Below, piece by piece: positions 18,714 through 45,029 of a DNA stretch of 64,000 bases. Under the pieces are notes generated by a model. It saw only the letters and a list, made by a program, of their open reading frames with translations, was not told the origin of the DNA and made no database searches. Each line of letters starts with the position of its first letter. The first letter of the stretch is position 1. Source of the DNA: Parcubacteria group bacterium ADurb.Bin192 (lineage in GTDB: Bacteria; Patescibacteriota; Patescibacteriia; 2-12-FULL-60-25). Made by a program: the position numbers and the translations under genes. Location of the stretch: contig MWCR01000005.1 in NCBI GenBank assembly GCA_002070095.1, positions 5,463-69,462 of the forward strand, in the 5' to 3' direction.

Positions 18714-19733
18714 TCAAGTAATTTTGTTTAAAATTACTTTTACCAACCTACATAAAGAATGCTTTTCTTCTACCTCAAGTTTTCCAACGTGATGAGTAGC
18801 TACTGTAAACAAGATGTCATGCATCTTTGAAAAATCATCTAGAATAAACTCGTAACTGATCACACCCTTTATTTGTTGGTAACCTTCGCCTCTGGCGATA
18901 ACCGGCACTCCGCAGGCTAAAGCCTCTAAAACCACTTTATCAATACTCCCTGTTTGACTGGTACTCAAAAAAAGTTTAGCGCGTTGATAAACGTCCGGCA
19001 ACCGCTCATATTCCATGGCCGGTAAAATACGAAATCTTTCCGCCAAGCCCAATTGTTCAGCTTTTTGGTTTAATGATTGGACATAGTCTTCGTGCCCTAA
19101 TGACGGTCCGATAATTTCATAAACCCATTGATCTTCCGGATATTTTTCTTTGTATTTTGCCAAAAATTCCAAAGAATCTTCATATTTTTTTGCGGGTGTA
19201 ATTCGTGAAACCGTAATTATTATATTCTCTTTTTTTACTTCCGAATCAGGCTTGAATAATGCCGTATCTATCCCCTGCCCCACAAATCTAGCTTTAGGCG
19301 TAGGCAAACGCAAACCTGTTTCCGAACTTGCAAAAATCAATTTAACCAATGGTTCGGCTAATTTTAACGCTAAAGGGATAGCGCCGTGCGCATACCAAAG
19401 ATAAATGGGTTTGCGTAATACAAACCAAATCGGCCAGCCGGCAAGCACCACTTCAGGCGACATATGAACAAAAACCGCGTCATATTTTTTTCTGTGCTTA
19501 AACGCAGAATGCCAAATTTTTAAAACCCGAGGCAGCCAAGCTTTACCAAGAGCAACCCCGATGGATCCGGCTGGCACATCGCTTTCATCAACATACCGGC
19601 TGATTAAAACCAAAGGACCCGCTTGTTTGGCAAATTCAGCCATCCAATTAACAGAAAACCCAAATACCGGGTCGTCATGTTTCAATGTCGGCGTATATAT
19701 TAATAATCTTTTTGAATTGTGACTATTTTCCAT
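18714..19733 (-). CDS. glycosyltransferase family 1/4
   Basis: 339 aa. IITVSRITPAKKYEDSL ... SQTGSIDKVVLEALACGVPVIA, a GT-B C-terminal signature. Confidence 0.75.
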   Translation of the reverse strand: MENSHNSKRLLIYTPTLKHDDPVFGFSVNWMAEFAKQAGPLVLISRYVDESDVPAGSIGVALGKAWLPRVLKIWHSAFKHRKKYDAVFVHMSPEVVLAGWPIWFVLRKPIYLWYAHGAIPLALKLAEPLVKLIFASSETGLRLPTPKARFVGQGIDTALFKPDSEVKKENIIITVSRITPAKKYEDSLEFLAKYKEKYPEDQWVYEIIGPSLGHEDYVQSLNQKAEQLGLAERFRILPAMEYERLPDVYQRAKLFLSTSQTGSIDKVVLEALACGVPVIARGEGYQQIKGVISYEFILDDFSKMHDILFTVATHHVGKLEVEEKHSLCRLVKVILNKIT

Positions 19734-22209
19734 ATGACCTTAATCTCAAGTCATGATTTTCAATCGCCTTTTCAACAAACTCCCCAAAAGTATTATTTCC
19801 TTTCAATCCAGACGCAGCTAAAGACTGAACGGTTAAACGATTTTGGAGCATGGCGAGCATGGCCTGACTCAAACCATGCACATCTCCCACAGGCACAACA
19901 TAACCGTTTTCACCGTTTTTAACCACCTCACCGGCACAACCCACATTGGTCATAATAACAGGCGTGTGACACATTAGCGACTCCACAGCCGTCATGCCAA
20001 AACCCTCTCCGTCCGAGGTGATGAGCGTGGCTACTGCTCCTTGATATAGTTCAGTCAAATTATCGGTCCAAGGGATGATCTCGACTCCAGCTTGTAATTC
20101 AAAATCAGCTATCCACTGCTTAACCTGACCCTCCAACGGCCCAGCCCCCACGATTTTAAGCTTAATATCAGGATCTTGCTTAACAACAAGACTGAAGGCA
20201 TGGATGGCGAGGTCTATGCGTTTAATGGGAACGAACCTGCAAACCAAGAGGAAATATCGTCCTACGTCGCACGTCCCGCGTCCCACGTCAACCGACGTAT
20301 TCCCGATAATTGATGATTGGTTATTGATTATTGGTAATTGGTTATTGGTAATTAAATTCAGCGGGAAACGGACCATCTTCTCTCGCGAGATACCAAGATT
20401 AGCAAGTGCATCTTCGGTTCTTTGACTGACAACTCGGATGGCATCCGCGCGTTTTACCAGCCACTTGGCCAACCAATATCTGAAATGATTTAAAAACGAC
20501 TCTTGATAATAATACTTTCCATGAAAATGATAGCCGTGATCCTGAACCGCTAAGGCTGAATTGCACAATCTGGCTGATATGGCGCCCACCAAACCTGTCT
20601 CTACGGGATCTTGCGTGATAACGACTTTAATATCCGTGTTTCTGATTTTCCAGGCCTGCACCAAGGCATCCCAGACATAAAAAAACTTATGCCAAGAATG
20701 AGTGGAGATGACGCGCACATTGGGCGCGATTTGCTCATCAAACTTTTGCTTGGCAAAAACGATGATGACAGCCTCGAAATCTTTTAACTGATCAACAATT
20801 CTATCCCGCACTTTTCCGGGCTCAAAGAGTTTACGCTCAAGGCTGATAGACAGGATGCGCTGACGCTGGTCATGATTTGAATCACGCCCCTGGATTCCCG
20901 TTTTCACGGGAATGACAATGGGGGTGACGTGGGACCCGCCTTCGCCGAAGCTTCGGTGGGCAGGCGCGGGACGCGGGACAGCTTGCCCCGTCGATACGGG
21001 GTGCGACGATAAAATCGAGAACGTTTCATTTATCATCCTCTCAAAACCAAGCTTATCCGGCAACCCAACGCGGGACGTGGGACGAGCGACGAGCGACGAT
21101 GCGATGGCTTCAACCCATGCTTGTTTATTTAAATACTCGGCCACCGTTACCAAGCCCGGAAAAAGTTCAGCGATTTCCGGATTCCCGCCTTTGTCGCTGA
21201 CAATGCAAGGCAGACCCGTGGAAGCGGCTTCAACGACCACATGCGGAAAACCTTCATAGCCCGTGGCGAGCACGAATAAATGAGCCTTATGATACCACTC
21301 GGTTAATTCAGCCCGTGACAACCGGCCCAGCCACATAACGCGATCCGCCACGCCTATTTCTTGTGCGTGCTTTTTCCAATTCTCCAACTCCGGCCCATCA
21401 CCCGCCACCGCCAAAACATATTCTTCCGGCAAATCTTTGATAACATCACACAAAAAATCCCCACCCTTCCAAGGCACAGCTCGTACGGCCGTCAAGATCA
21501 CTTTTCGTCGCTCGTCGCTCGTCCCACGTAAATCTGACGCGAGACGTGGAAGCGACGAAATAGAATTATAAACAACGTTTATCTTATCAGCCGGGATACC
21601 CCACTTAGTAACGATTGTTTTAAGATACTTGGACGGCACAATAATCTGCTTAGCCCGCGACGCCACCCACCTCTCAACCGCCTCCATCAACCAAATCTTC
21701 CCCTCATGCCGACGCGTCACAAACTCATCCAGCAATTCAAACCCTCGTCGCTCGTCGCTCGTCCCAATCGTCCCGCGTACTTCTGACGTGGGACGCAGGA
21801 CGTGCGACGCGGGACGTTGCTGGTATTGTTCCCACGCATAATCCCCCACTACTTTTAGAACAAGAGGTTTACGAGCAAAAATTGACGCCAAGGTAGCCGG
21901 CAACCCCTCTGACACCGGCCCTTGCGCATAAACCACATCCGCCTGGCGCGCAAGTTTGTAAGCATTCCAAAAATACATCCAGTATCTTTGTACGATGGCA
22001 CGCGTGTTCGCGAACGCCGTGCCGATGTACGATGTACGATGTACGACCGTAACTTTATAATTTTCACCAATCTCTGTTTTCTCGTCCCCGTATGTGATGA
22101 CAGCCACCTCATGACCTTGCCTCGCGAGTTCAGTCGCGACACCCTTAACATACCCGGCCGGTCCGCCGATTTCGGGAGGGTATATTCCAGTGGCTATTAA
22201 TAACTTCAT
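19723..22209 (-). CDS. tandem double GT4 glycosyltransferase (two GT-B units joined by a repeat-derived linker; several in-frame repeat insertions)
   Basis: Unit 1 is MKLLIATGIYPPEIGGPAGYV...ATGYEGFPHVVVEAASTGLPCIVSD. Unit 2 is RILSISLERKLFEPGKVRD...SDGEGFGMTAVESLMCHTPVIMT and has no start codon of its own. The linker HPVSTGQAVPRPAPAHRSFGEGGSHVTPIVIPVKTGIQG is encoded by hairpin modules. Confidence 0.75.
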   Translation of the reverse strand: MKLLIATGIYPPEIGGPAGYVKGVATELARQGHEVAVITYGDEKTEIGENYKVTVVHRTSYIGTAFANTRAIVQRYWMYFWNAYKLARQADVVYAQGPVSEGLPATLASIFARKPLVLKVVGDYAWEQYQQRPASHVLRPTSEVRGTIGTSDERRGFELLDEFVTRRHEGKIWLMEAVERWVASRAKQIIVPSKYLKTIVTKWGIPADKINVVYNSISSLPRLASDLRGTSDERRKVILTAVRAVPWKGGDFLCDVIKDLPEEYVLAVAGDGPELENWKKHAQEIGVADRVMWLGRLSRAELTEWYHKAHLFVLATGYEGFPHVVVEAASTGLPCIVSDKGGNPEIAELFPGLVTVAEYLNKQAWVEAIASSLVARPTSRVGLPDKLGFERMINETFSILSSHPVSTGQAVPRPAPAHRSFGEGGSHVTPIVIPVKTGIQGRDSNHDQRQRILSISLERKLFEPGKVRDRIVDQLKDFEAVIIVFAKQKFDEQIAPNVRVISTHSWHKFFYVWDALVQAWKIRNTDIKVVITQDPVETGLVGAISARLCNSALAVQDHGYHFHGKYYYQESFLNHFRYWLAKWLVKRADAIRVVSQRTEDALANLGISREKMVRFPLNLITNNQLPIINNQSSIIGNTSVDVGRGTCDVGRYFLLVCRFVPIKRIDLAIHAFSLVVKQDPDIKLKIVGAGPLEGQVKQWIADFELQAGVEIIPWTDNLTELYQGAVATLITSDGEGFGMTAVESLMCHTPVIMTNVGCAGEVVKNGENGYVVPVGDVHGLSQAMLAMLQNRLTVQSLAASGLKGNNTFGEFVEKAIENHDLRLRSYGK

Positions 22210-22217
22210 AAACCAAC

Positions 22218-22870
22218 GTCTAGACCTTGATTAACTTGATTACGCTCAGATTATCCTTGATTACTTAATGACAGACCAAATTCAACTTAATGATGCTCAG
22301 ATTATCCCTGATTACTTAATGAGCTGAATTATGATTAACATAATTACTTTGGGTTAACAACTTATCACTGCCTGATTTAAATTTGTTGTTGTATATTCTT
22401 TTAAATTCTAAACTTTTTGCGCCAAAATTAATTAATAGCCCGATTTCAACATTATAAGCCTCAAGATAATTCATGGCTTGCGCCAAATGAGCATTATCCA
22501 ATTCAGTTGCCGCCTTAAGCTCAAGCATAACACAATTCTCAACGAAAAAATCCACTCTGCGCGTTCCTATATCAAAACCTTCATAATAAATCTTCATTTC
22601 TTTTTCCCTCTCAAATTCCAATCCTTGCATCTGCATCTCAATTTTTAAAGCACGCTGATATATAACCTCTTGAAAACCATTCTTCAAAACCCCATGAACT
22701 TTCATCGCGCATCCAATAATTTTATGGGTAATTTCATAAGTGTCCATATATACAGTCGCCATTTCAATAAATAATCCCGGAAAAATTTAAGCGTCATCGC
22801 GTTAAATTTGGTTTTGTCATTTAGTAATCAAGGTTAATCTGAGCGTAATCAAGTTAATCAAGGTCTAGAC
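22218..22870. mobile_element. TIR-bounded cassette carrying a GxxExxY gene (56-bp terminal inverted repeats)
   Basis: IR-L at 22218-22273 (gtctagaccttgattaacttgattacgctcagattatccttgattacttaatgaca) matches the reverse complement of IR-R at 22815-22870 at 54/56 positions, by manual alignment. Confidence 0.6.
22316..22762 (-). CDS. GxxExxY family protein (PD-(D/E)XK nuclease-like fold)
   Basis: NGFQEVIYQRAL contains G-x-x-E-x-x-Y. Also RVDFFVENCVMLELKA and AQAMNYL..LLINFG, typical of the family as I remember it (TIGR04256). Confidence 0.8.
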   Translation of the reverse strand: MATVYMDTYEITHKIIGCAMKVHGVLKNGFQEVIYQRALKIEMQMQGLEFEREKEMKIYYEGFDIGTRRVDFFVENCVMLELKAATELDNAHLAQAMNYLEAYNVEIGLLINFGAKSLEFKRIYNNKFKSGSDKLLTQSNYVNHNSAH

Positions 22871-24000
22871 AATGAGCTGAAAACCCCTCCCATCCTCTCC
22901 GCTATACTAACCCAATTATACTGATTAACCGCCAAATCTTTGCCTTGACGTATCAGTTTATCGCGCAATCCGGGCTCTGTTTGAATACGCACAGCCGCTT
23001 CTGCGATAGTCTCGGGTTTACCGGGTTCACAAAACAAGCCGGTCTCACCGTCGGTCAGAAAATCAGGAATACCTCCCACGGGCGTGCCTATGATGGGGAT
23101 GCCCGAAGCCATGGCTTCCAAAAACGAATTGCCCAAACCTTCGGACAAGGATGGCCGGCAAAAAATATCGGATGACTGCAACAAACCCGGCAGTTCAGCG
23201 TGTCCGCGCAGGCCTAAAAATACCACTCTGTTATCCAATTTATTTTGTGCCACCAATTCTTTTAACTTGGCCATATCTTCGCCGTCGCCCACCACCAAGA
23301 CTTTATAATTATCCGGCAAATGAGTTAAAGACAAGATCAGATGGTCGGTCGCGTTTTTAAGTACCAAGCGCGAGGCCGTGACCAAGACCACGTCGTCCGG
23401 TGCAAAACCCATGGCCTGACGCAAGGCCTGCCTTTCATCCGGAGTTATGGATTGTGTAAAACGCGTCACATCCACGCCATTGGGAATGATAACCGGCTCG
23501 CCTTTAAAACCCATATTCTTGCCCCAATCGGCCAGAAACTTGCTGATAGCCTGTATTTGATTGGCGCGGGTAAATATCTTTTTGAAAACCCAGCCTAAAG
23601 GCCTGACACGTTTTAAAATATATTCCGGCGGATCGCCCTCTTGCAGAGTCAACAACATCTTGGTTTTAGGACGCAGCCACGTATAAAACAAGGCCGCGAA
23701 ACCCCCAAAACTGGCCATCATGGACCAGATGCCGGCCACTTCGTCCTGTTTGGCCAAACGCCAAGCTTTGAAAGCACCTAAAAAGGGCAGCAAATATTTA
23801 TCCACAGGCTTGCCCAAACCGCAACGATAAACCTCCACCTTCCCCACTCTCTCGTGATCCGGCAGTCCGGCCTGAATTTTGGCGGTCACCATCACAAAAT
23901 CATAATCATTGATTCTGTCCGTGATTTCTTTAATGGCAACTTCAGCCCCGCCCACCAAAGGAAAATAGGCCGTGGAGAAGATAATGATTTTTTTAGACAT
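22858..24000 (-). CDS. glycosyltransferase family 4
   Basis: MSKKIIIFSTAYFPLVGGAEVA...VTASRLVLKNATDHL...SLSEGLGNSFLEAMASGIPIIGT. The last three codons and the stop lie inside IR-R of the neighbouring cassette. Confidence 0.85.
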   Translation of the reverse strand: MSKKIIIFSTAYFPLVGGAEVAIKEITDRINDYDFVMVTAKIQAGLPDHERVGKVEVYRCGLGKPVDKYLLPFLGAFKAWRLAKQDEVAGIWSMMASFGGFAALFYTWLRPKTKMLLTLQEGDPPEYILKRVRPLGWVFKKIFTRANQIQAISKFLADWGKNMGFKGEPVIIPNGVDVTRFTQSITPDERQALRQAMGFAPDDVVLVTASRLVLKNATDHLILSLTHLPDNYKVLVVGDGEDMAKLKELVAQNKLDNRVVFLGLRGHAELPGLLQSSDIFCRPSLSEGLGNSFLEAMASGIPIIGTPVGGIPDFLTDGETGLFCEPGKPETIAEAAVRIQTEPGLRDKLIRQGKDLAVNQYNWVSIAERMGGVFSSLSRP

Positions 24001-24001
24001 A

Positions 24002-25456
24002 TTATTGAGAAATATCTTTTAAAATGGCGTTATAAACAAAACGAATTTGATTGGCGAACACATCGCCCGTGCGATTGGAGGCTGTCAGACGGGCGGACGA
24101 AGCCACATTGGCCGCATAATGCAGTTGATGCCCCGAAGAAGCAGAGATCTGATCCGCGTTCTTCAGAATAGTGTTTAACAACAAACGCAAATGCCAGGGG
24201 ACTTTTTCTAATTTTTGATCAGCCAACGAAATCAACAACGGCATGTGTGATTGACGGCGAAACACAATACCGGCCAAAGCCGCGTAACTGGCCATGATGG
24301 ACCAGGTGAACAAATATTGATGGCGAGCCATTAATTCTTTGGCTTTACGCGGTCCGTACCAAGGCAAAAAATATTTATCTGTTTTTTTGCCCCGGCCGAT
24401 TTTATGCACTGTTACATTGGACAAGGGCGACCCGGCCCGCAAAGCATCGGCCGAAAAAGCCGAAGTAATCACGTCAAAATGCACATCTTTCATCAACTCC
24501 ATGAGTTTTAACAAAGCCTGTTCCGCCAAGCCCTGCACCGGATAAAAAGTGGTGGAAAAAACCAGAACCCTTTTATCCTCTCCGGCCAAGCGTTCGGTTT
24601 TAGCGATAAAATCACGAATGTATTCGTCCAATCTATGCTTCTGCTCCCAGCCCAAAGCCCGCGCTCTGGAGGTATCAGCTTGGGAAGTCAAGCGATTGCC
24701 CCGCCGTTCCGGGAGCATGACTACGGGCGCGCCAAACATTTTGGCTACGTCCATAACCGAAAAAGCCTGTTCCGCGCCCAAGCCGAACTCATCACCTTCT
24801 CCCTTATCGCCCACCAAAATCAAACCATCCACGATATCATCCACGTGCGTGAAATTTCTGGCTTGCGTGCCGGGTGCTGTGACGGTTAAGGGCTGACCCT
24901 GCCTGAATTCCTCGCTGAAAATGCCGATCAAAGTGGAATACGGACCGTGACTGATTTCGCCCGGACCGTAAACATTATAAAAATAAGTGATGGCAAAAGG
25001 CAGGCCGTACCACTGTCCATAATTTTTAACCAGCTCCGTGTTGGAGGCTTTCATCCAGGTATAAGGCGTGAGATCGCGCCCCAAACCGCCGTCCGAAAAT
25101 TTGGTAGATGAACCCGCGTACACGATTTTACAATTTTTCTTACGGCAAAATTCCAACACCGCAAAAGTGCCCGCCTTATTCAAATCCCAAACCAATTCCG
25201 GCGGATCCTCCAAACTTTTTTCCACGCGCGAATACTCACCCAGATGAAAAACCAAATCCGGAGTTTCGCTGACCAATTTTTCGATTTCTTTGCTGTGCCC
25301 CTCTCTGTATTCCACCCCCGGCACATGATTGTCACGCGAACCCGTAAAATAATTATCCAGGCTGATTACTTTGTGCCCCAAAGACACCAACCGCCGGCAA
25401 AGATTGGAGCCCACAAAACCCGCGCCTCCGGTCACCAGGATTAATTTTGAGTCCAT
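24002..25456 (-). CDS. NAD-dependent sugar-nucleotide epimerase/dehydratase fused to a GT-B N-terminal-half-like domain
   Basis: N-terminus ILVTGGAGFVGSNL with a YxxxK-type SDR fold (~290 aa). The C-terminal ~190 aa (RVLVFSTTFYPVQGLAEQA...DKYFLPWYG...WSIMASYAALAG) is paralogous to the N-half of the adjacent GT4. Confidence 0.75.
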   Translation of the reverse strand: MDSKLILVTGGAGFVGSNLCRRLVSLGHKVISLDNYFTGSRDNHVPGVEYREGHSKEIEKLVSETPDLVFHLGEYSRVEKSLEDPPELVWDLNKAGTFAVLEFCRKKNCKIVYAGSSTKFSDGGLGRDLTPYTWMKASNTELVKNYGQWYGLPFAITYFYNVYGPGEISHGPYSTLIGIFSEEFRQGQPLTVTAPGTQARNFTHVDDIVDGLILVGDKGEGDEFGLGAEQAFSVMDVAKMFGAPVVMLPERRGNRLTSQADTSRARALGWEQKHRLDEYIRDFIAKTERLAGEDKRVLVFSTTFYPVQGLAEQALLKLMELMKDVHFDVITSAFSADALRAGSPLSNVTVHKIGRGKKTDKYFLPWYGPRKAKELMARHQYLFTWSIMASYAALAGIVFRRQSHMPLLISLADQKLEKVPWHLRLLLNTILKNADQISASSGHQLHYAANVASSARLTASNRTGDVFANQIRFVYNAILKDISQ

Positions 25457-25760: not shown

Positions 25761-25938
25761 CGGGACGAGCGACGCAGGACGTTAGGTACGTGAGAGGACG
25801 TTATGTACGCTAAGTACGTGGCACGTTGTTACATGCTACATGCTATGTGCTATATGCTACATGCTATGTGCTACATGCTACATGCTACATGCTATGTGCT
25901 ATATGCTACATGCTATGTGCTACATGCTACATGCTACA
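25750..25938 (+). repeat. 7-bp-periodic array: GACGNNN units grading into 16 x TGCTAYR units with a 49-bp higher-order duplication
   Basis: gacgcag gacgcgg gacgagc gacgcag gacgtta at 25750-25784, then 25827-25938 = 16 consecutive heptamers. 25841-25889 and 25890-25938 are identical 49-mers. Confidence 0.9.
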
Positions 25939-25973
25939 TGAAAATGGACGTTATTCACGATCCGTTGTAATTT

Positions 25974-27251
25974 ATGCTTATGAGCCAAGTTAAGCCGATT
26001 CTGCTCATGGTTACCAGCCAAGACTGGGGCGGAGCCCAAGCCTATGTTTTTAATTTGGCGCTTGAAATGAAATCACAAGGCCTACCCGTCATCATCTGCG
26101 CCGGCTCTGCCCCGACGCGGGACGACTCTTTGGGCCAAAAATGCCATTCCGCAGGCATTGACTTCATCGAAATAAAACACCTGGCGCGCAATATAAATCC
26201 GATAGATAATTTTTTAGCTCTGATTGAACTGATAAAATTATTCAGACGCGTCCAACCCCGGGCCATTCAACTCAATAGCTCCATGATGGGCGCCGTCGGT
26301 TCTTTAGCCGGGTATCTGACAAAAGTGCCCAAGATAGTTTACACGGCTCATGGCTGGGTTTTTAATGAACAATTGCCGAACTGGAAAAAAACTTTATATA
26401 TTTGGATAGAAAAAATATCAGCTCGCTTAAAGCACGTGATTATTTGCTTGCATGATCAAGATTTGGAGCTGGCTAAAAAACACGGAATTAAACCACGACA
26501 AAAAATCACCGTTATTCCTAACGGGATTGATGCTATAACTTTTGAAAAAAACCTTGCCGGACGGGAAGAGGCTTGTAAGACATTAAGCGAGATTGCCGCG
26601 CTCGTCGGACTCCCTCGCAATGACAATGTTAGTTTTGACGTAGGACGCGGGGTCCTTCCTTTCGCGAAAGGAGGGAGGACATTGGGTTTTTTGTTACATG
26701 CTACATGTTACATGTTTTGTGACGAGCGACGTGGGACGTTAGTCGGCACGGTGGCCAACGCCTATCCGCCCAAAAACCTGCTTTGGTATTTGGAGGTGTG
26801 CCAAGCTGTGCACGCTAAGGATCCTGATATCCGTTTTGTGATTGCGGGCGATGGTCCGCAAATGGAAGAATTAAAAGCCAAACACCGGGCACTTGAGCAA
26901 GAAGAATATGTTTTACTGACCGGCAGATTAGACCCGGCCGGTATTTATCAAGCTTTTGATATTTTTGTTTTGCCCTCGAGCAAAGAAGGCATGCCCATCA
27001 CTATCTTAGAGGCCATGGCCGCCAAACTGCCGATTATCGCCACGGATGTGGGCGCCTGCCGCCTGATGCTCGAGCCGGACGCGGGCCTGATTGTCCCGCC
27101 CAATGATTTATCAACCTTGACTCAAACCATTCTGGATTTGACGGATGACGCGGATAAACGCCAAAAACTGGGCCAACAAGCCTACCAAAAAGTTACTCAA
27201 AATTTTACCTGGCAAAATACCGCTGATCAGACCATAAAAGAACTCCTCTAA
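25974..27251 (+). CDS. glycosyltransferase family 4 with ~51-aa in-frame repeat-derived insertion
   Basis: ILLMVTSQDWGGAQAYV...VIPNGIDAITF...[SEIAALVGLPRNDNVSFDVGRGVLPFAKGGRTLGFLLHATCYMFCDERRGT]LVGTVANAYPPKNL...SSKEGMPITILEAMAAKLPIIATDVG. Confidence 0.8.
   Translation: MLMSQVKPILLMVTSQDWGGAQAYVFNLALEMKSQGLPVIICAGSAPTRDDSLGQKCHSAGIDFIEIKHLARNINPIDNFLALIELIKLFRRVQPRAIQLNSSMMGAVGSLAGYLTKVPKIVYTAHGWVFNEQLPNWKKTLYIWIEKISARLKHVIICLHDQDLELAKKHGIKPRQKITVIPNGIDAITFEKNLAGREEACKTLSEIAALVGLPRNDNVSFDVGRGVLPFAKGGRTLGFLLHATCYMFCDERRGTLVGTVANAYPPKNLLWYLEVCQAVHAKDPDIRFVIAGDGPQMEELKAKHRALEQEEYVLLTGRLDPAGIYQAFDIFVLPSSKEGMPITILEAMAAKLPIIATDVGACRLMLEPDAGLIVPPNDLSTLTQTILDLTDDADKRQKLGQQAYQKVTQNFTWQNTADQTIKELL
26587..26741 (+). 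repeat. intragenic copy of the composite repeat (half long-hairpin + GACGNNN + TTACATG heptamers)
   Basis: gcgagattgccgcgctcgtcggactccctcgcaatgacaatgttagttttgacgtaggacgcgg closely matches intergenic 25708-25765. Followed by ttacatg ctacatg ttacatg and gacgagc gacgtgg gacgtta. Confidence 0.85.
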
Positions 27252-43405: not shown

Positions 43406-43794
43406 GCTCAACCTCTAGGCCCCTGTATCGATCGCATTCTCGCGACTCGGTGCAGGCGGCCTATTATTTTTGTATAAACTGCCGATGCCTTTATTAACAA
43501 AGCCGTAATCCTATAAACTCTTCGTCATCCTGACTTCCGGTTGTCATCCTGAACCTCCAGTCGTCATCCTGACCACCAAATCGTCATCCTGAACTTGTTT
43601 CAGGATCTCTGAACTCAATAACCACTGTTATTCAGTATGATTAGGAGTTAGATCCTGAACTGAATTCAGGATGACAGAAGGAGAAACAGGATAATAGGAG
43701 TGAGATGCTGAACTGAATTCAGCATGACGGAAGAAGGAATCAGCCCCCAATCGTCATCACACGCCACCCACGGTCATCCCGAACTCCCAAATCG

Positions 43795-44109
43795 TCATCC
43801 TGAACTTGTTTCAGGATCTCCAACCAATCCACCAAACAAATCTTCAAAACAAGGATTGTCTTTTAAGACTAAATTAATCTTCCAATCTCTGTGCCATCTT
43901 TTCAGTTGTTTTTCTCTTTCAATGGCCACGATAGGACTATTGGCGATTTCATAATAAACCAATTTAGTAATGTTATATTTCTTGGTGAAACCTTGGACTA
44001 AACCTCTTTTATGTTCGTCTACCCTTCTCAACAAATCATTAGTTACCCCGATATAAAATACGGTATTGACTGAATTAGTCATGATGTAAACATACATGTT
44101 TTTTGGCAT
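43795..44109 (-). CDS. GIY-YIG nuclease family protein (URI domain, UPF0213-like), copy 1
   Basis: YVYIMTNSVNTVFYIGVTNDLLRRVDEH...EREKQLKRWHRDWKINLV..NPCFEDL. The last residues DPETSSG and the stop are encoded by the hairpin gatcctgaaacaagttcaggatga. Confidence 0.85.
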   Translation of the reverse strand: MPKNMYVYIMTNSVNTVFYIGVTNDLLRRVDEHKRGLVQGFTKKYNITKLVYYEIANSPIVAIEREKQLKRWHRDWKINLVLKDNPCFEDLFGGLVGDPETSSG

Positions 44110-44490
44110 GATAAAAGTATAACAGATTATGATGCTGATGGTGATTTGGTGAAGAGATCCTGAAACAAGTTCAGGATGACGAAAGGAGAAACAGGATAAT
44201 AGGAGTGAGATGCTGAACTGAATTCAGCATGACGGAAGAATAAATCTAACCCCCTATCGTCATCACATGCCACCCACGGTCATCCTGAACTTGTTTCAGG
44301 ATCTCTAAACTCAATAACCACTGTTATTCAGTATGATTAGGAGTTAGATCCTGAACTGAATTCAGGATGACAGAAGGAGAAACAGGATAATAGGAGTGAG
44401 ATGCTGAACTGAATTCAGCATGACGGAAGAAGGAATCAGCCCCCAATCGTCATCACACGCCACCCACGGTCATCCCGAACTCCCAAATCG

Positions 44491-44805
44491 TCATCCTGAA
44501 CTTGTTTCAGGATCTCCAACCAATCCACCAAACAAATCTTCAAAACAAGGATTGTCTTTTAAGACTAAATTAATCTTCCAATCTCTGTGCCATCTTTTCA
44601 GTTGTTTTTCTCTTTCAATGGCCACGATAGGACTATTGGCGATTTCATAATAAACCAATTTAGTAATGTTATATTTCTTGGTGAAACCTTGGACTAAACC
44701 TCTTTTATGTTCGTCTACCCTTCTCAACAAATCATTAGTTACCCCGATATAAAATACGGTATTGACTGAATTAGTCATGATGTAAACATACATGTTTTTT
44801 GGCAT
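44491..44805 (-). CDS. GIY-YIG nuclease family protein, copy 2 (identical)
   Basis: Identical 104-aa translation, 696 bp from copy 1. Confidence 0.85.
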   Translation of the reverse strand: MPKNMYVYIMTNSVNTVFYIGVTNDLLRRVDEHKRGLVQGFTKKYNITKLVYYEIANSPIVAIEREKQLKRWHRDWKINLVLKDNPCFEDLFGGLVGDPETSSG

Positions 44806-45029
44806 GATAAAAGTATAACAGATTATGATGCTGATGGTGATTTGGTGAAGAGATCCTGAAACAAGTTCAGGATGACGAAAGGAGAAACAGGATAATAGGA
44901 GTGAGATGCTGAACCCCCACTATGTCTTACGACTTCGAGGGGCACGTAAATTCAGCATGACGGAAGAAGCAGGATGGCTGATAGGTTCAGGATGACGAAA
45001 TAGCTTAGCGTAACAATTTGGTTGTTCCT

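Follow-up and report, generated by a model that had tools for sequence, protein, structure and literature searches.

Small nuclease-type genes that lie between inverted palindromic repeats are found in the REP/REPIN-RAYT system, in which the repetitive extragenic palindrome (REP) also occurs without the gene, as hairpin doublets of ~100 nt at gene ends. Free-standing homing endonuclease genes, such as the seg and mob genes of phages or the gene of the PD-(D/E)XK enzyme I-Ssp6803I, are lone nuclease genes between conserved host genes that are patchily present at one site, have mosaic flanks without target-site duplications (TSDs), and form a decay series from the intact gene via remnants to loss. 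Insertion sequences and miniature inverted-repeat transposable elements (MITEs) have terminal inverted repeats (TIRs) with sub-terminal repeats, a single open reading frame (ORF), and gene-less miniatures sharing the same ends, and in Tn7-like transposons the PD-(D/E)XK nuclease TnsA cuts at ends that harbor several repeated protein-binding sites. Here, we examined a cassette with likenesses to all of these systems, located at positions 22218 to 22870 in a 64,000-nt stretch of contig MWCR01000005.1 from Parcubacteria group bacterium ADurb.Bin192 (the whole stretch is referred to as the window). The cassette consists of inverted repeats around one gene for a GxxExxY protein of 148 amino acids (aa). 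We read it as an intact copy of a widespread selfish element, made up of modular inverted ends and one GxxExxY nuclease gene and spreading in a homing-like manner, and give this reading about an even chance of being right.

Each of the known systems has at least one defining feature that was looked for in the cassette and is missing from it. RAYTs are HUH/Y1 enzymes of the IS200/IS605 family and are typically single-copy and vertically inherited, whereas the cassette protein belongs to the PD-(D/E)XK nucleases and GxxExxY genes are multi-copy and 60 to 79% identical across phyla. Furthermore, REPs are GTAG/CGTC-tagged, while the cassette repeat is composed of phased GATT iterons and a 15-nt terminus. 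The cassette protein matches no known homing endonuclease by sequence or among the top structural matches, and to our knowledge homing genes have neither conserved inverted iteron ends nor MITE-like palindromic derivatives at unrelated sites. In contrast to insertion sequences and MITEs, the cassette family shows no TSD, no recognised transposase chemistry, and a strong operon orientation bias. TnsA requires the DDE transposase TnsB and leaves 5-bp TSDs, whereas the cassette has neither a partner gene nor a TSD.

A sequence-only reading of the window had described the repeats as 56-bp TIRs that are complementary at 54 of 56 positions. Using a repeat finder, we located the arms at 22218 to 22280 and 22808 to 22870 (63 nt each, 92% complementary, spacer of 527 nt), and a recount yielded 58/63 over the longer arm and the same 54/56 over the 56-nt span. 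The best inverted-repeat span in the surrounding 2.1-kb region was 66, whereas 200 shuffles reached 23 on average and 34 at most. A weaker second tier was detected between 22281 to 22323 and 22764 to 22806, with a local score of 16 that was reached in 0 of 1,000 shuffles (null mean, 7.6; maximum, 15). Each end is therefore a tandem of two modules of ~51 nt. When a stretch of 681 nt was folded as single-stranded DNA, the arms paired over ~108 nt at -103 kcal/mol, compared to -60 ± 4.7 kcal/mol for its shuffles (z = -9.2). The repeat as such is real, and its length had been underestimated, with a modular arm of ~108 nt in place of 56 bp.

The only ORF of at least 60 aa in the cassette that is not an antisense artefact is the 148-aa gene itself (22316 to 22762, minus strand), and the inner modules adjoin its start and stop codons. 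On the downstream side in gene orientation, the outer module (22218 to 22280) begins with the terminal 15-mer GTCTAGACCTTGATT (22218 to 22232) and carries GATT iterons at inner positions 12, 21, 32, and 42. The left arm is copied in tandem at 22273 to 22322 with 82% identity, and this copy, within a degenerate inner module at 22273 to 22323, holds the stop codon of the cassette gene (22316 to 22318), as the sequence-only reading had observed for a shorter sub-repeat. On the upstream side, the outer module (22808 to 22870; 58/63 to its partner arm) terminates in the 15-mer AATCAAGGTCTAGAC (22856 to 22870, plus strand), which has two mismatches to the family end motif, and the degenerate inner module (22764 to 22806), identified by the second repeat tier and by pairing in the DNA fold, abuts the start codon. 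The motif CTTGATTA occurs three times per arm, as had been counted before, and 11 times across the window versus 2.3 expected, while no further copy of the cassette end sequence was found in the window. The end variant carried by the organism of the window is labelled GTCTAGAC. The GC content of the cassette is 31 to 36% versus ~50% in its flanks. In addition, an 11-nt direct repeat, AATGAGCTGAA, is located at 22318 to 22328, where the 3' end of the cassette ORF meets the start of the inner module, and at 22871 to 22881, where it forms host glycosyltransferase (GT) codons just beyond the upstream terminus. The repeat is absent from the related locus L092, a rough post hoc estimate puts its occurrence by chance at ~0.01, and it may mark a recombination that added the extra end module of the window.

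The 148-aa protein matches the family models TIGR04256 (GxxExxY; 8e-40, 135.8 bits, cut-off 35) and PF13366 (PDDEXK_3; 8e-37, 126.7 bits, cut-off 22), which confirms the earlier assignment of the single gene between the arms. Its GxxExxY motif reads GFQEVIY, and all 27 aligned homologues share E32 within this motif as well as D71, E81, and K83. An AlphaFold model has a mean predicted local distance difference test (pLDDT) score of 83 and values of >90 through the core, with a disordered stretch of 18 C-terminal residues that is encoded by the inner end module. The best structural matches were PD-(D/E)XK nucleases of the Cas4/RecB type, at TM-scores of only 0.4 to 0.5, and include SSO0001 (4ic1), ACE1, lambda-exonuclease-like enzymes, the nuclease domains of AddB/AdnA, and the R2 endonuclease. 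No homing endonuclease was among the top 50 structural matches, and no solved structure in the PDB matches the protein by sequence. Based on the invariant catalytic residues, the fold model, and the matches to PD-(D/E)XK structures, the protein is predicted to be a minimal, apparently active nuclease domain without a close characterised relative.

A Pfam/NCBIfam scan of the cassette protein returned PDDEXK_3/GxxExxY only and no match to DDE, HUH, serine, or tyrosine transposases. Among the PADLOC defence models, there was only a weak Cas4b-like match (E = 9.5e-4), consistent with the shared fold, and the only match among the PHROGs was to a group of unknown function. A Hjc-like cruciform resolvase was considered and rejected, as the fold search yielded Cas4/RecB-type nucleases and not resolvases. 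When clustered at 50% identity, the GxxExxY/PDDEXK_3 family forms 13,581 clusters among 1.84 billion representatives, and a survey of PD-(D/E)XK proteins from 2012 lists PF13366 with the function "Unknown" and multiple transfers (PMC3424549). Some family members are 250 to 277 aa long and have two tandem GxxExxY domains, and many representatives are fragments of 80 to 115 aa.

To compare the ends across the family, 80 genomic loci (L011 to L090; 670 kb in all) were fetched around close homologues. Homologues with 60 to 79% identity are present in Patescibacteria, Bacteroidota, Chloroflexota, Ignavibacteriota, Chlorobiota, Spirochaetota, and Gammaproteobacteria, and culturable carriers include Ginsengibacter hankyongi, Mucilaginibacter spp., and Fulvivirga imtechensis (L029, L046, L049, and L083). 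In the gene flanks, inverted repeats scoring 30 bits or more were found in 24/68 loci (mismatched controls, 10/68) and direct repeats scoring 40 bits or more in 20/68 (controls, 4/68). These repeats are all of one kind, namely iterated AATCAAG/GATTA units terminated by AATCAAGGTTCAGAC. The family end has ATT outside its boundary and GTCTGAACCTTGATT inside, followed by GATT repeats every ~9 nt. With up to two mismatches allowed, the end 15-mer occurs 201 times in the 670 kb versus once in shuffles, and it is located at most 300 nt from the gene in 63/80 loci. The sequence-only reading had proposed a search for other copies of the TIR, and the same ends do recur across phyla. A profile of 200 distinct ends revealed ATT outside the 15-mer and GATT at inner positions 21 to 24, 30 to 33, and 39 to 42 (9-nt period), none of which had been selected for by the 15-mer search. 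Beyond position -3, the profile is at background composition, and the terminus is therefore sharply defined. The terminal consensus of each end is ATT, then the boundary, then GTCT(G/A)(A/G)ACCTTGATT, with GATT iterons about one helical turn apart. The terminus reads GGTTCAGAC or GGTCTAGAC, and GTTCAGA does not fit the integron attC core GTTRRRY, a comparison made without an integrase search.

The commonest architecture of the element is that of the window, with inverted ends around the gene (<G>), which accounts for 22/73 copies, or 25 with close variants. It is followed by a complete palindrome, the gene, and an extra right end (<>G>; 10 copies plus variants), and the end motif was undetectable in 11/73 copies. 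Distances from a left end to the next right end are bimodal, with 35 units of 80 to 120 nt and ~25 units of 455 to 720 nt. All but two of the longer units contain a recognisable GxxExxY ORF, the two exceptions being probably artefacts of antisense ORFs. The shorter units are hairpin-forming palindromes (-22 to -47 kcal/mol) that occur singly or in arrays (e.g., L052 and L029) and that no Rfam family represents. The same conserved, sharply bounded ends recur across phyla, and they also occur as gene-less palindromes of ~100 nt. In a related metagenome-assembled genome (MAG), a second copy (L012) at a different site shares 99.1% identity with L011 over 468 nt, although it is uncertain for a binned MAG that both belong to the same genome. 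The match begins inside the left arm and stops precisely at the outer right terminus, and an array of half-elements lies upstream. No excess of flanking direct repeats was found in 48 isolated units (k = 2 to 9, offsets 0 to 4) and no TSD at the junctions of the window, L092, L011, or L093, in agreement with the lack of a clear TSD noted from the sequence alone. Examples of decay in place are seen in L037, where the fourth codon is changed from CAG to TAG relative to L044 and a decayed remnant of a second GxxExxY gene lies just upstream (1240 to 1500) beside another end motif. L037 and L044 were also considered as a filled and empty pair, which was rejected because the extra 600 nt are an unrelated gene.

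We then compared the insertion site in the window with the same nucleotide position, just after a Leu codon near the end of the gene, in contigs with orthologues of the 380-aa GT4 glycosyltransferase that precedes the cassette (22858 to 24000, minus strand). In the window, the C-terminal tail and stop codon of this gene are replaced by the element end (…SSL followed by SRP*), and its last three codons and stop (22858 to 22860) lie inside the upstream arm, as had been recognised before. A gene-bearing element is present in the window, L092, and L013. L093 has both ends around ~170 nt of other sequence without the gene, L096 a solo palindrome of 118 nt, and L094/L095 a 98-aa GIY-YIG gene with its own flanking repeats. 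L091, L143, and L144 have no element, and L142 has no element and another downstream gene. Presence is thus patchy at one same site among close relatives. GT orthologue tails of the form "…LSEP*" derive from the consensus terminus (TTG TCT GAA CCT TGA), while empty-site orthologues end L-x-x-*. The sequence-only reading had proposed to look for empty sites in relatives, and in the empty-site relatives the two GT genes abut or overlap. The tail "SSLITR…" of P0124 was considered as a truncated element end and rejected, since L144 is without an element and has only a 45-nt tail.

In a neighbour-joining tree of the GT, the sister of the window is the empty L091 and the sister of L092 is the empty L144. 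A sliding-window comparison of the window with L091 showed 88 to 98% identity across the GT and 58 to 59% in the last ~200 nt before the site, and this tract of L091 is divergent from all other loci. The element-free sister allele thus differs by a replaced flanking tract, which indicates homologous recombination with a foreign allele and not clean excision. The sequence-only reading had also named an outcome that would speak against a mobile unit, namely a unique palindrome kept by relatives that lack the gene. L093 and L096 do lack the gene and retain ends, but the repeat recurs elsewhere and is without a terminator signal, and the pattern reads as element decay, not as a terminator. Taken together, the cross-phylum ends, the gene-less derivatives, the 99%-identical second copy, and the empty orthologous site support the proposal of a selfish or mobile unit that is compact, delimited by TIRs, and centred on a protein of the PD-(D/E)XK type.

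The GxxExxY genes are co-oriented with their neighbours in 49/57 cases upstream and 56/65 downstream (p ~1e-8). Among the flanking ORFs with a length of at least 120 aa, 34 read into an end, and 21 of these have their stop codon in the terminal 15-mer, 12 with the TGA at positions 11 to 13, as in the GT of the window, and 9 with the TGA at positions 4 to 6. Among ORFs reading away from an end, 19/39 start 2 to 5 nt outside, a count that includes GxxExxY ORFs. Within operons, the element is placed precisely at the junction of one gene's stop and the next gene's start, in the orientation of the host genes, and it often supplies the stop codon of the upstream gene. In the window, a host double-GT4 gene (19723 to 22209, minus strand, 828 aa), which abuts or overlaps the 380-aa GT gene in the empty-site relatives, lies directly downstream of the element, with 8 nt between the element end and its ATG (22209). 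The possibility that AAGG in the right end serves as ribosome-binding site of the next gene was unsupported, as it lies 15 nt from the ATG in the window. Promoter signal in the cassette was at chance level. The window copy is probably an old resident that is expressed by read-through of the GT operon. A special association with polysaccharide loci, suggested by the sequence-only reading, did not hold up, as the element is not specific to such loci.

For the proposed homing-like spread, the nuclease, probably bound to the repeated sites as a multimer, would recognise the ends or palindromes with their iterons and would cut either these or alleles without the element. An occupied copy would then serve as template for repair by homologous recombination, by which the gene would be copied together with its ends, and the copies would later decay to gene-less palindromes and finally be lost by allelic replacement. 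Homing-like copying is favoured over transposition because there is no TSD and no strand-transfer enzyme, the flanks of occupied and empty alleles differ, and one recent copy is end-truncated.

Several points weigh against homing-like spread. End binding, end cutting, and the homing mechanism are all inferred from sequence comparison. The sole well-resolved polymorphism, that of L091, documents loss by replacement and not gain. The window and L092 have diverged in parallel, with 89% identity in the cassette protein and 86% in the GT, and vertical descent plus decay explains most of the data at the GT site without active homing. Simple homing predicts neither the <>G> architectures nor the truncation in the left arm of L012, and homing alone does not explain how gene-less palindromes reach new sites. 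The doubt as to whether L011 and L012 share one genome also counts here, and, with all 80 loci picked for holding a close homologue, the share of palindromes in gene-less genomes lies outside the sample. Mobility, as proposed from the sequence alone, is supported by the evidence at the family level, but the window copy itself shows no sign of recent movement, as all 11 contigs with the identical protein, which come from anaerobic-digester metagenomes and a MAG, have the same GT-GxxExxY-GT context.

The genes of more distant GxxExxY members (31 to 59% identity) likewise have iterated repeats in their flanks, but the repeat sequences are different. Inverted CAGAGGAC units surround the gene in Bacteroides finegoldii (L139), direct ACAAATMG units in Prevotella nigrescens (L141), and AATCC/AATCA units ending in AATCAAGGCT in Persicobacter (L138), which suggests that the repeat type changes with the protein subfamily. 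A wider proposal, which we put forward tentatively and consider rather doubtful, is that a hitherto unrecognised class of mobile DNA, present in many phyla, relies on GxxExxY nucleases as its only enzyme. Each subfamily would recognise ends with an iteron type of its own (GATT here, CAGAGGAC in Bacteroides, and ACAAATMG in Prevotella), and the ~100-nt palindromes would be non-autonomous offspring. If true, this would place a new enzyme class beside transposases and homing enzymes, one that builds operon-compatible insertions with their own stop codons. The results give the GxxExxY family a predicted DNA partner, the 15-nt terminus with phased GATT iterons, and a putative life history in which the element invades, decays to palindromes, and is lost when an allele is replaced. 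They would also account for a class of palindromic repeats of ~100 nt in Bacteroidota, Chloroflexota, Patescibacteria, and other phyla and for the "orphan" appearance of the small GxxExxY genes within operons. Compact sequence-specific nucleases may be obtainable from the family if its specificity changes along with the iterons.

Among the rival explanations, a true TIR transposon fares best, although we consider it unlikely. The GxxExxY nuclease would act as transposase, alone or with host factors, in that it binds the iterons, cuts the unit at its conserved termini, and moves it, and the ~100-nt palindromes would be its MITEs. Sharply bounded, conserved inverted termini with phased sub-terminal repeats are found in many transposons, and the bimodal sizes would correspond to autonomous and miniature forms. 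The solo palindromes at many unrelated sites, the foreign composition of the cassette, and the near-identical second copy whose identity stops at the terminus fit as well. However, a transposon is difficult to reconcile with the lack of TSDs in the 48 isolated units and at the window junctions and with a sole protein that is a PD-(D/E)XK domain of 125 to 150 aa and no strand-transfer enzyme. The strong orientation bias relative to host genes is unexpected for symmetric ends unless imposed by selection, the flanks differ between occupied and empty alleles, and the L012 copy is without a left terminus and yet 99% identical.

A domesticated system appears somewhat less likely still. Here, the repeats would be REP-like host palindromes with a role in mRNA stability, operon punctuation, or DNA structure, GxxExxY an embedded housekeeping or defence nuclease, and the patchiness a result of recombining surface-polysaccharide loci. 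The precise placement in stop/start junctions, the co-orientation, and the supplied stop codons would be expected of such a system, and the element appears to co-diverge with the host genes at the GT site. Furthermore, the GC content of the gene partly tracks that of the host (slope of 0.6, r = 0.73), which implies long residence; the gene is lower in GC in 55/65 loci, and the gap is large in the window (0.34 versus 0.51). The locus is a glycosyltransferase cluster, and such clusters are known for mosaicism. On the other hand, 60 to 79% identity across distant phyla and a nearly invariant 15-mer fit horizontal spread better, there are nonsense-mutated and fragmentary copies as well as many truncated representatives, and close relatives do without the element. 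Neither a defence-system match beyond the weak Cas4b-like one nor a terminator signature was found.

Very unlikely, in our view, is a function of the paired ends at the RNA level, in which they would enclose the ORF in the operon transcript and be processed, for example by RNase III, like the intervening sequences of 23S rRNA, thereby regulating the nuclease or separating cistrons. The gene orientation fits co-transcription with the operon, the ~108-nt pairing of the arms has a very low folding energy, and the cassette has no promoter of its own above chance. However, the ends occur as direct repeats, which are unable to form the stem, in 20/68 loci, and gene-less palindromes occur alone. A search of Rfam 15 with the window region and five related loci yielded chance-level matches only, and the ungapped arm-to-arm co-variation was modest (0.61 within units versus 0.56 between loci) and not relied on. 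The patchy presence and cross-phylum spread would also be left unexplained. Finally, a unique palindrome, terminator, or chance repeat beside an unrelated orphan gene, to which the single copy in the window might point, is refuted by the ends recurring in 63/80 loci, the end profile, and a shuffle test that the inverted repeat far exceeds, and the cassette contains neither a T-run nor any other terminator-like site, with counts equal to those in shuffles.

Returning to the selfish element with homing-like spread, we searched for possible carriers and earlier descriptions. The 31-nt end variant of the window had no match in a scan of metagenome contigs, a result that is uninformative because the collection does not include the Joint Genome Institute (JGI) record 3300009780 (L002), which contains the string twice. 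In viral contigs, a 16-mer matched 41 times, with the iteron signature on only 5 contigs and the rest being chance or conserved phage coding sequence. Sequenced phages contained no homologue of the cassette protein, and plasmids contained one in 8 of 72,556 records. Neither phages nor plasmids thus stand out as carriers. No description of the element was found in literature on GxxExxY, PF13366, PDDEXK_3, TIGR04256, or the 15-mer, of which coverage was incomplete, so that a description elsewhere is possible. Beyond the PD-(D/E)XK survey, the literature found contained passing mentions of GxxExxY only, and for the 15-mer coincidental primers only.

Other small nuclease genes were observed at the same operon junction and elsewhere in the window. 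In L094 (3013 to 3470) and L095, the GIY-YIG gene directly follows the orthologue of the 380-aa GT and is flanked by direct repeats of ~46 nt, TCATTTCGAGCGAAGTCTGACGGAGTCGAGAAATCTCACGAAGCTA; this one operon junction seems to be open to small nuclease genes of different kinds. In the window, a tandem duplication of 696 nt contains two identical 104-aa GIY-YIG ORFs on the minus strand (43795 to 44109 and 44491 to 44805). Perfect inverted repeats of 29 nt, TCGTCATCCTGAACTTGTTTCAGGATCTC, enclose each ORF and are small hairpins in their own right, with more hairpin copies nearby, and the ORFs have weak PHROG matches to GIY-YIG homing endonucleases. The region from 43500 to 45000 is a second arrangement of a nuclease gene in palindromes in the same genome.

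Further repeats were found within the GT ORFs, where heptamer-type tandem repeats occur in frame in the window (21505 to 21526, 21745 to 21766, 22020 to 22045, and 25803 to 25990) and in its relatives (L092, 2950 to 2997; L093, 5740 to 5773). The repeat types TCGTCGC…, ATGTACG…, CGTCGCA…, and CAATTAC… encode low-complexity inserts such as TSDERRG and HATCYMLHA. An epimerase gene of the window (24002 to 25456, minus strand, 484 aa) has a C-terminal extension of ~170 aa that is missing in the 311-aa orthologue of L091 (5069 to 6004) and is fused to the N terminus of the GT in another relative (P0127, 579 aa). The extension is a domain shuffled between neighbouring genes.

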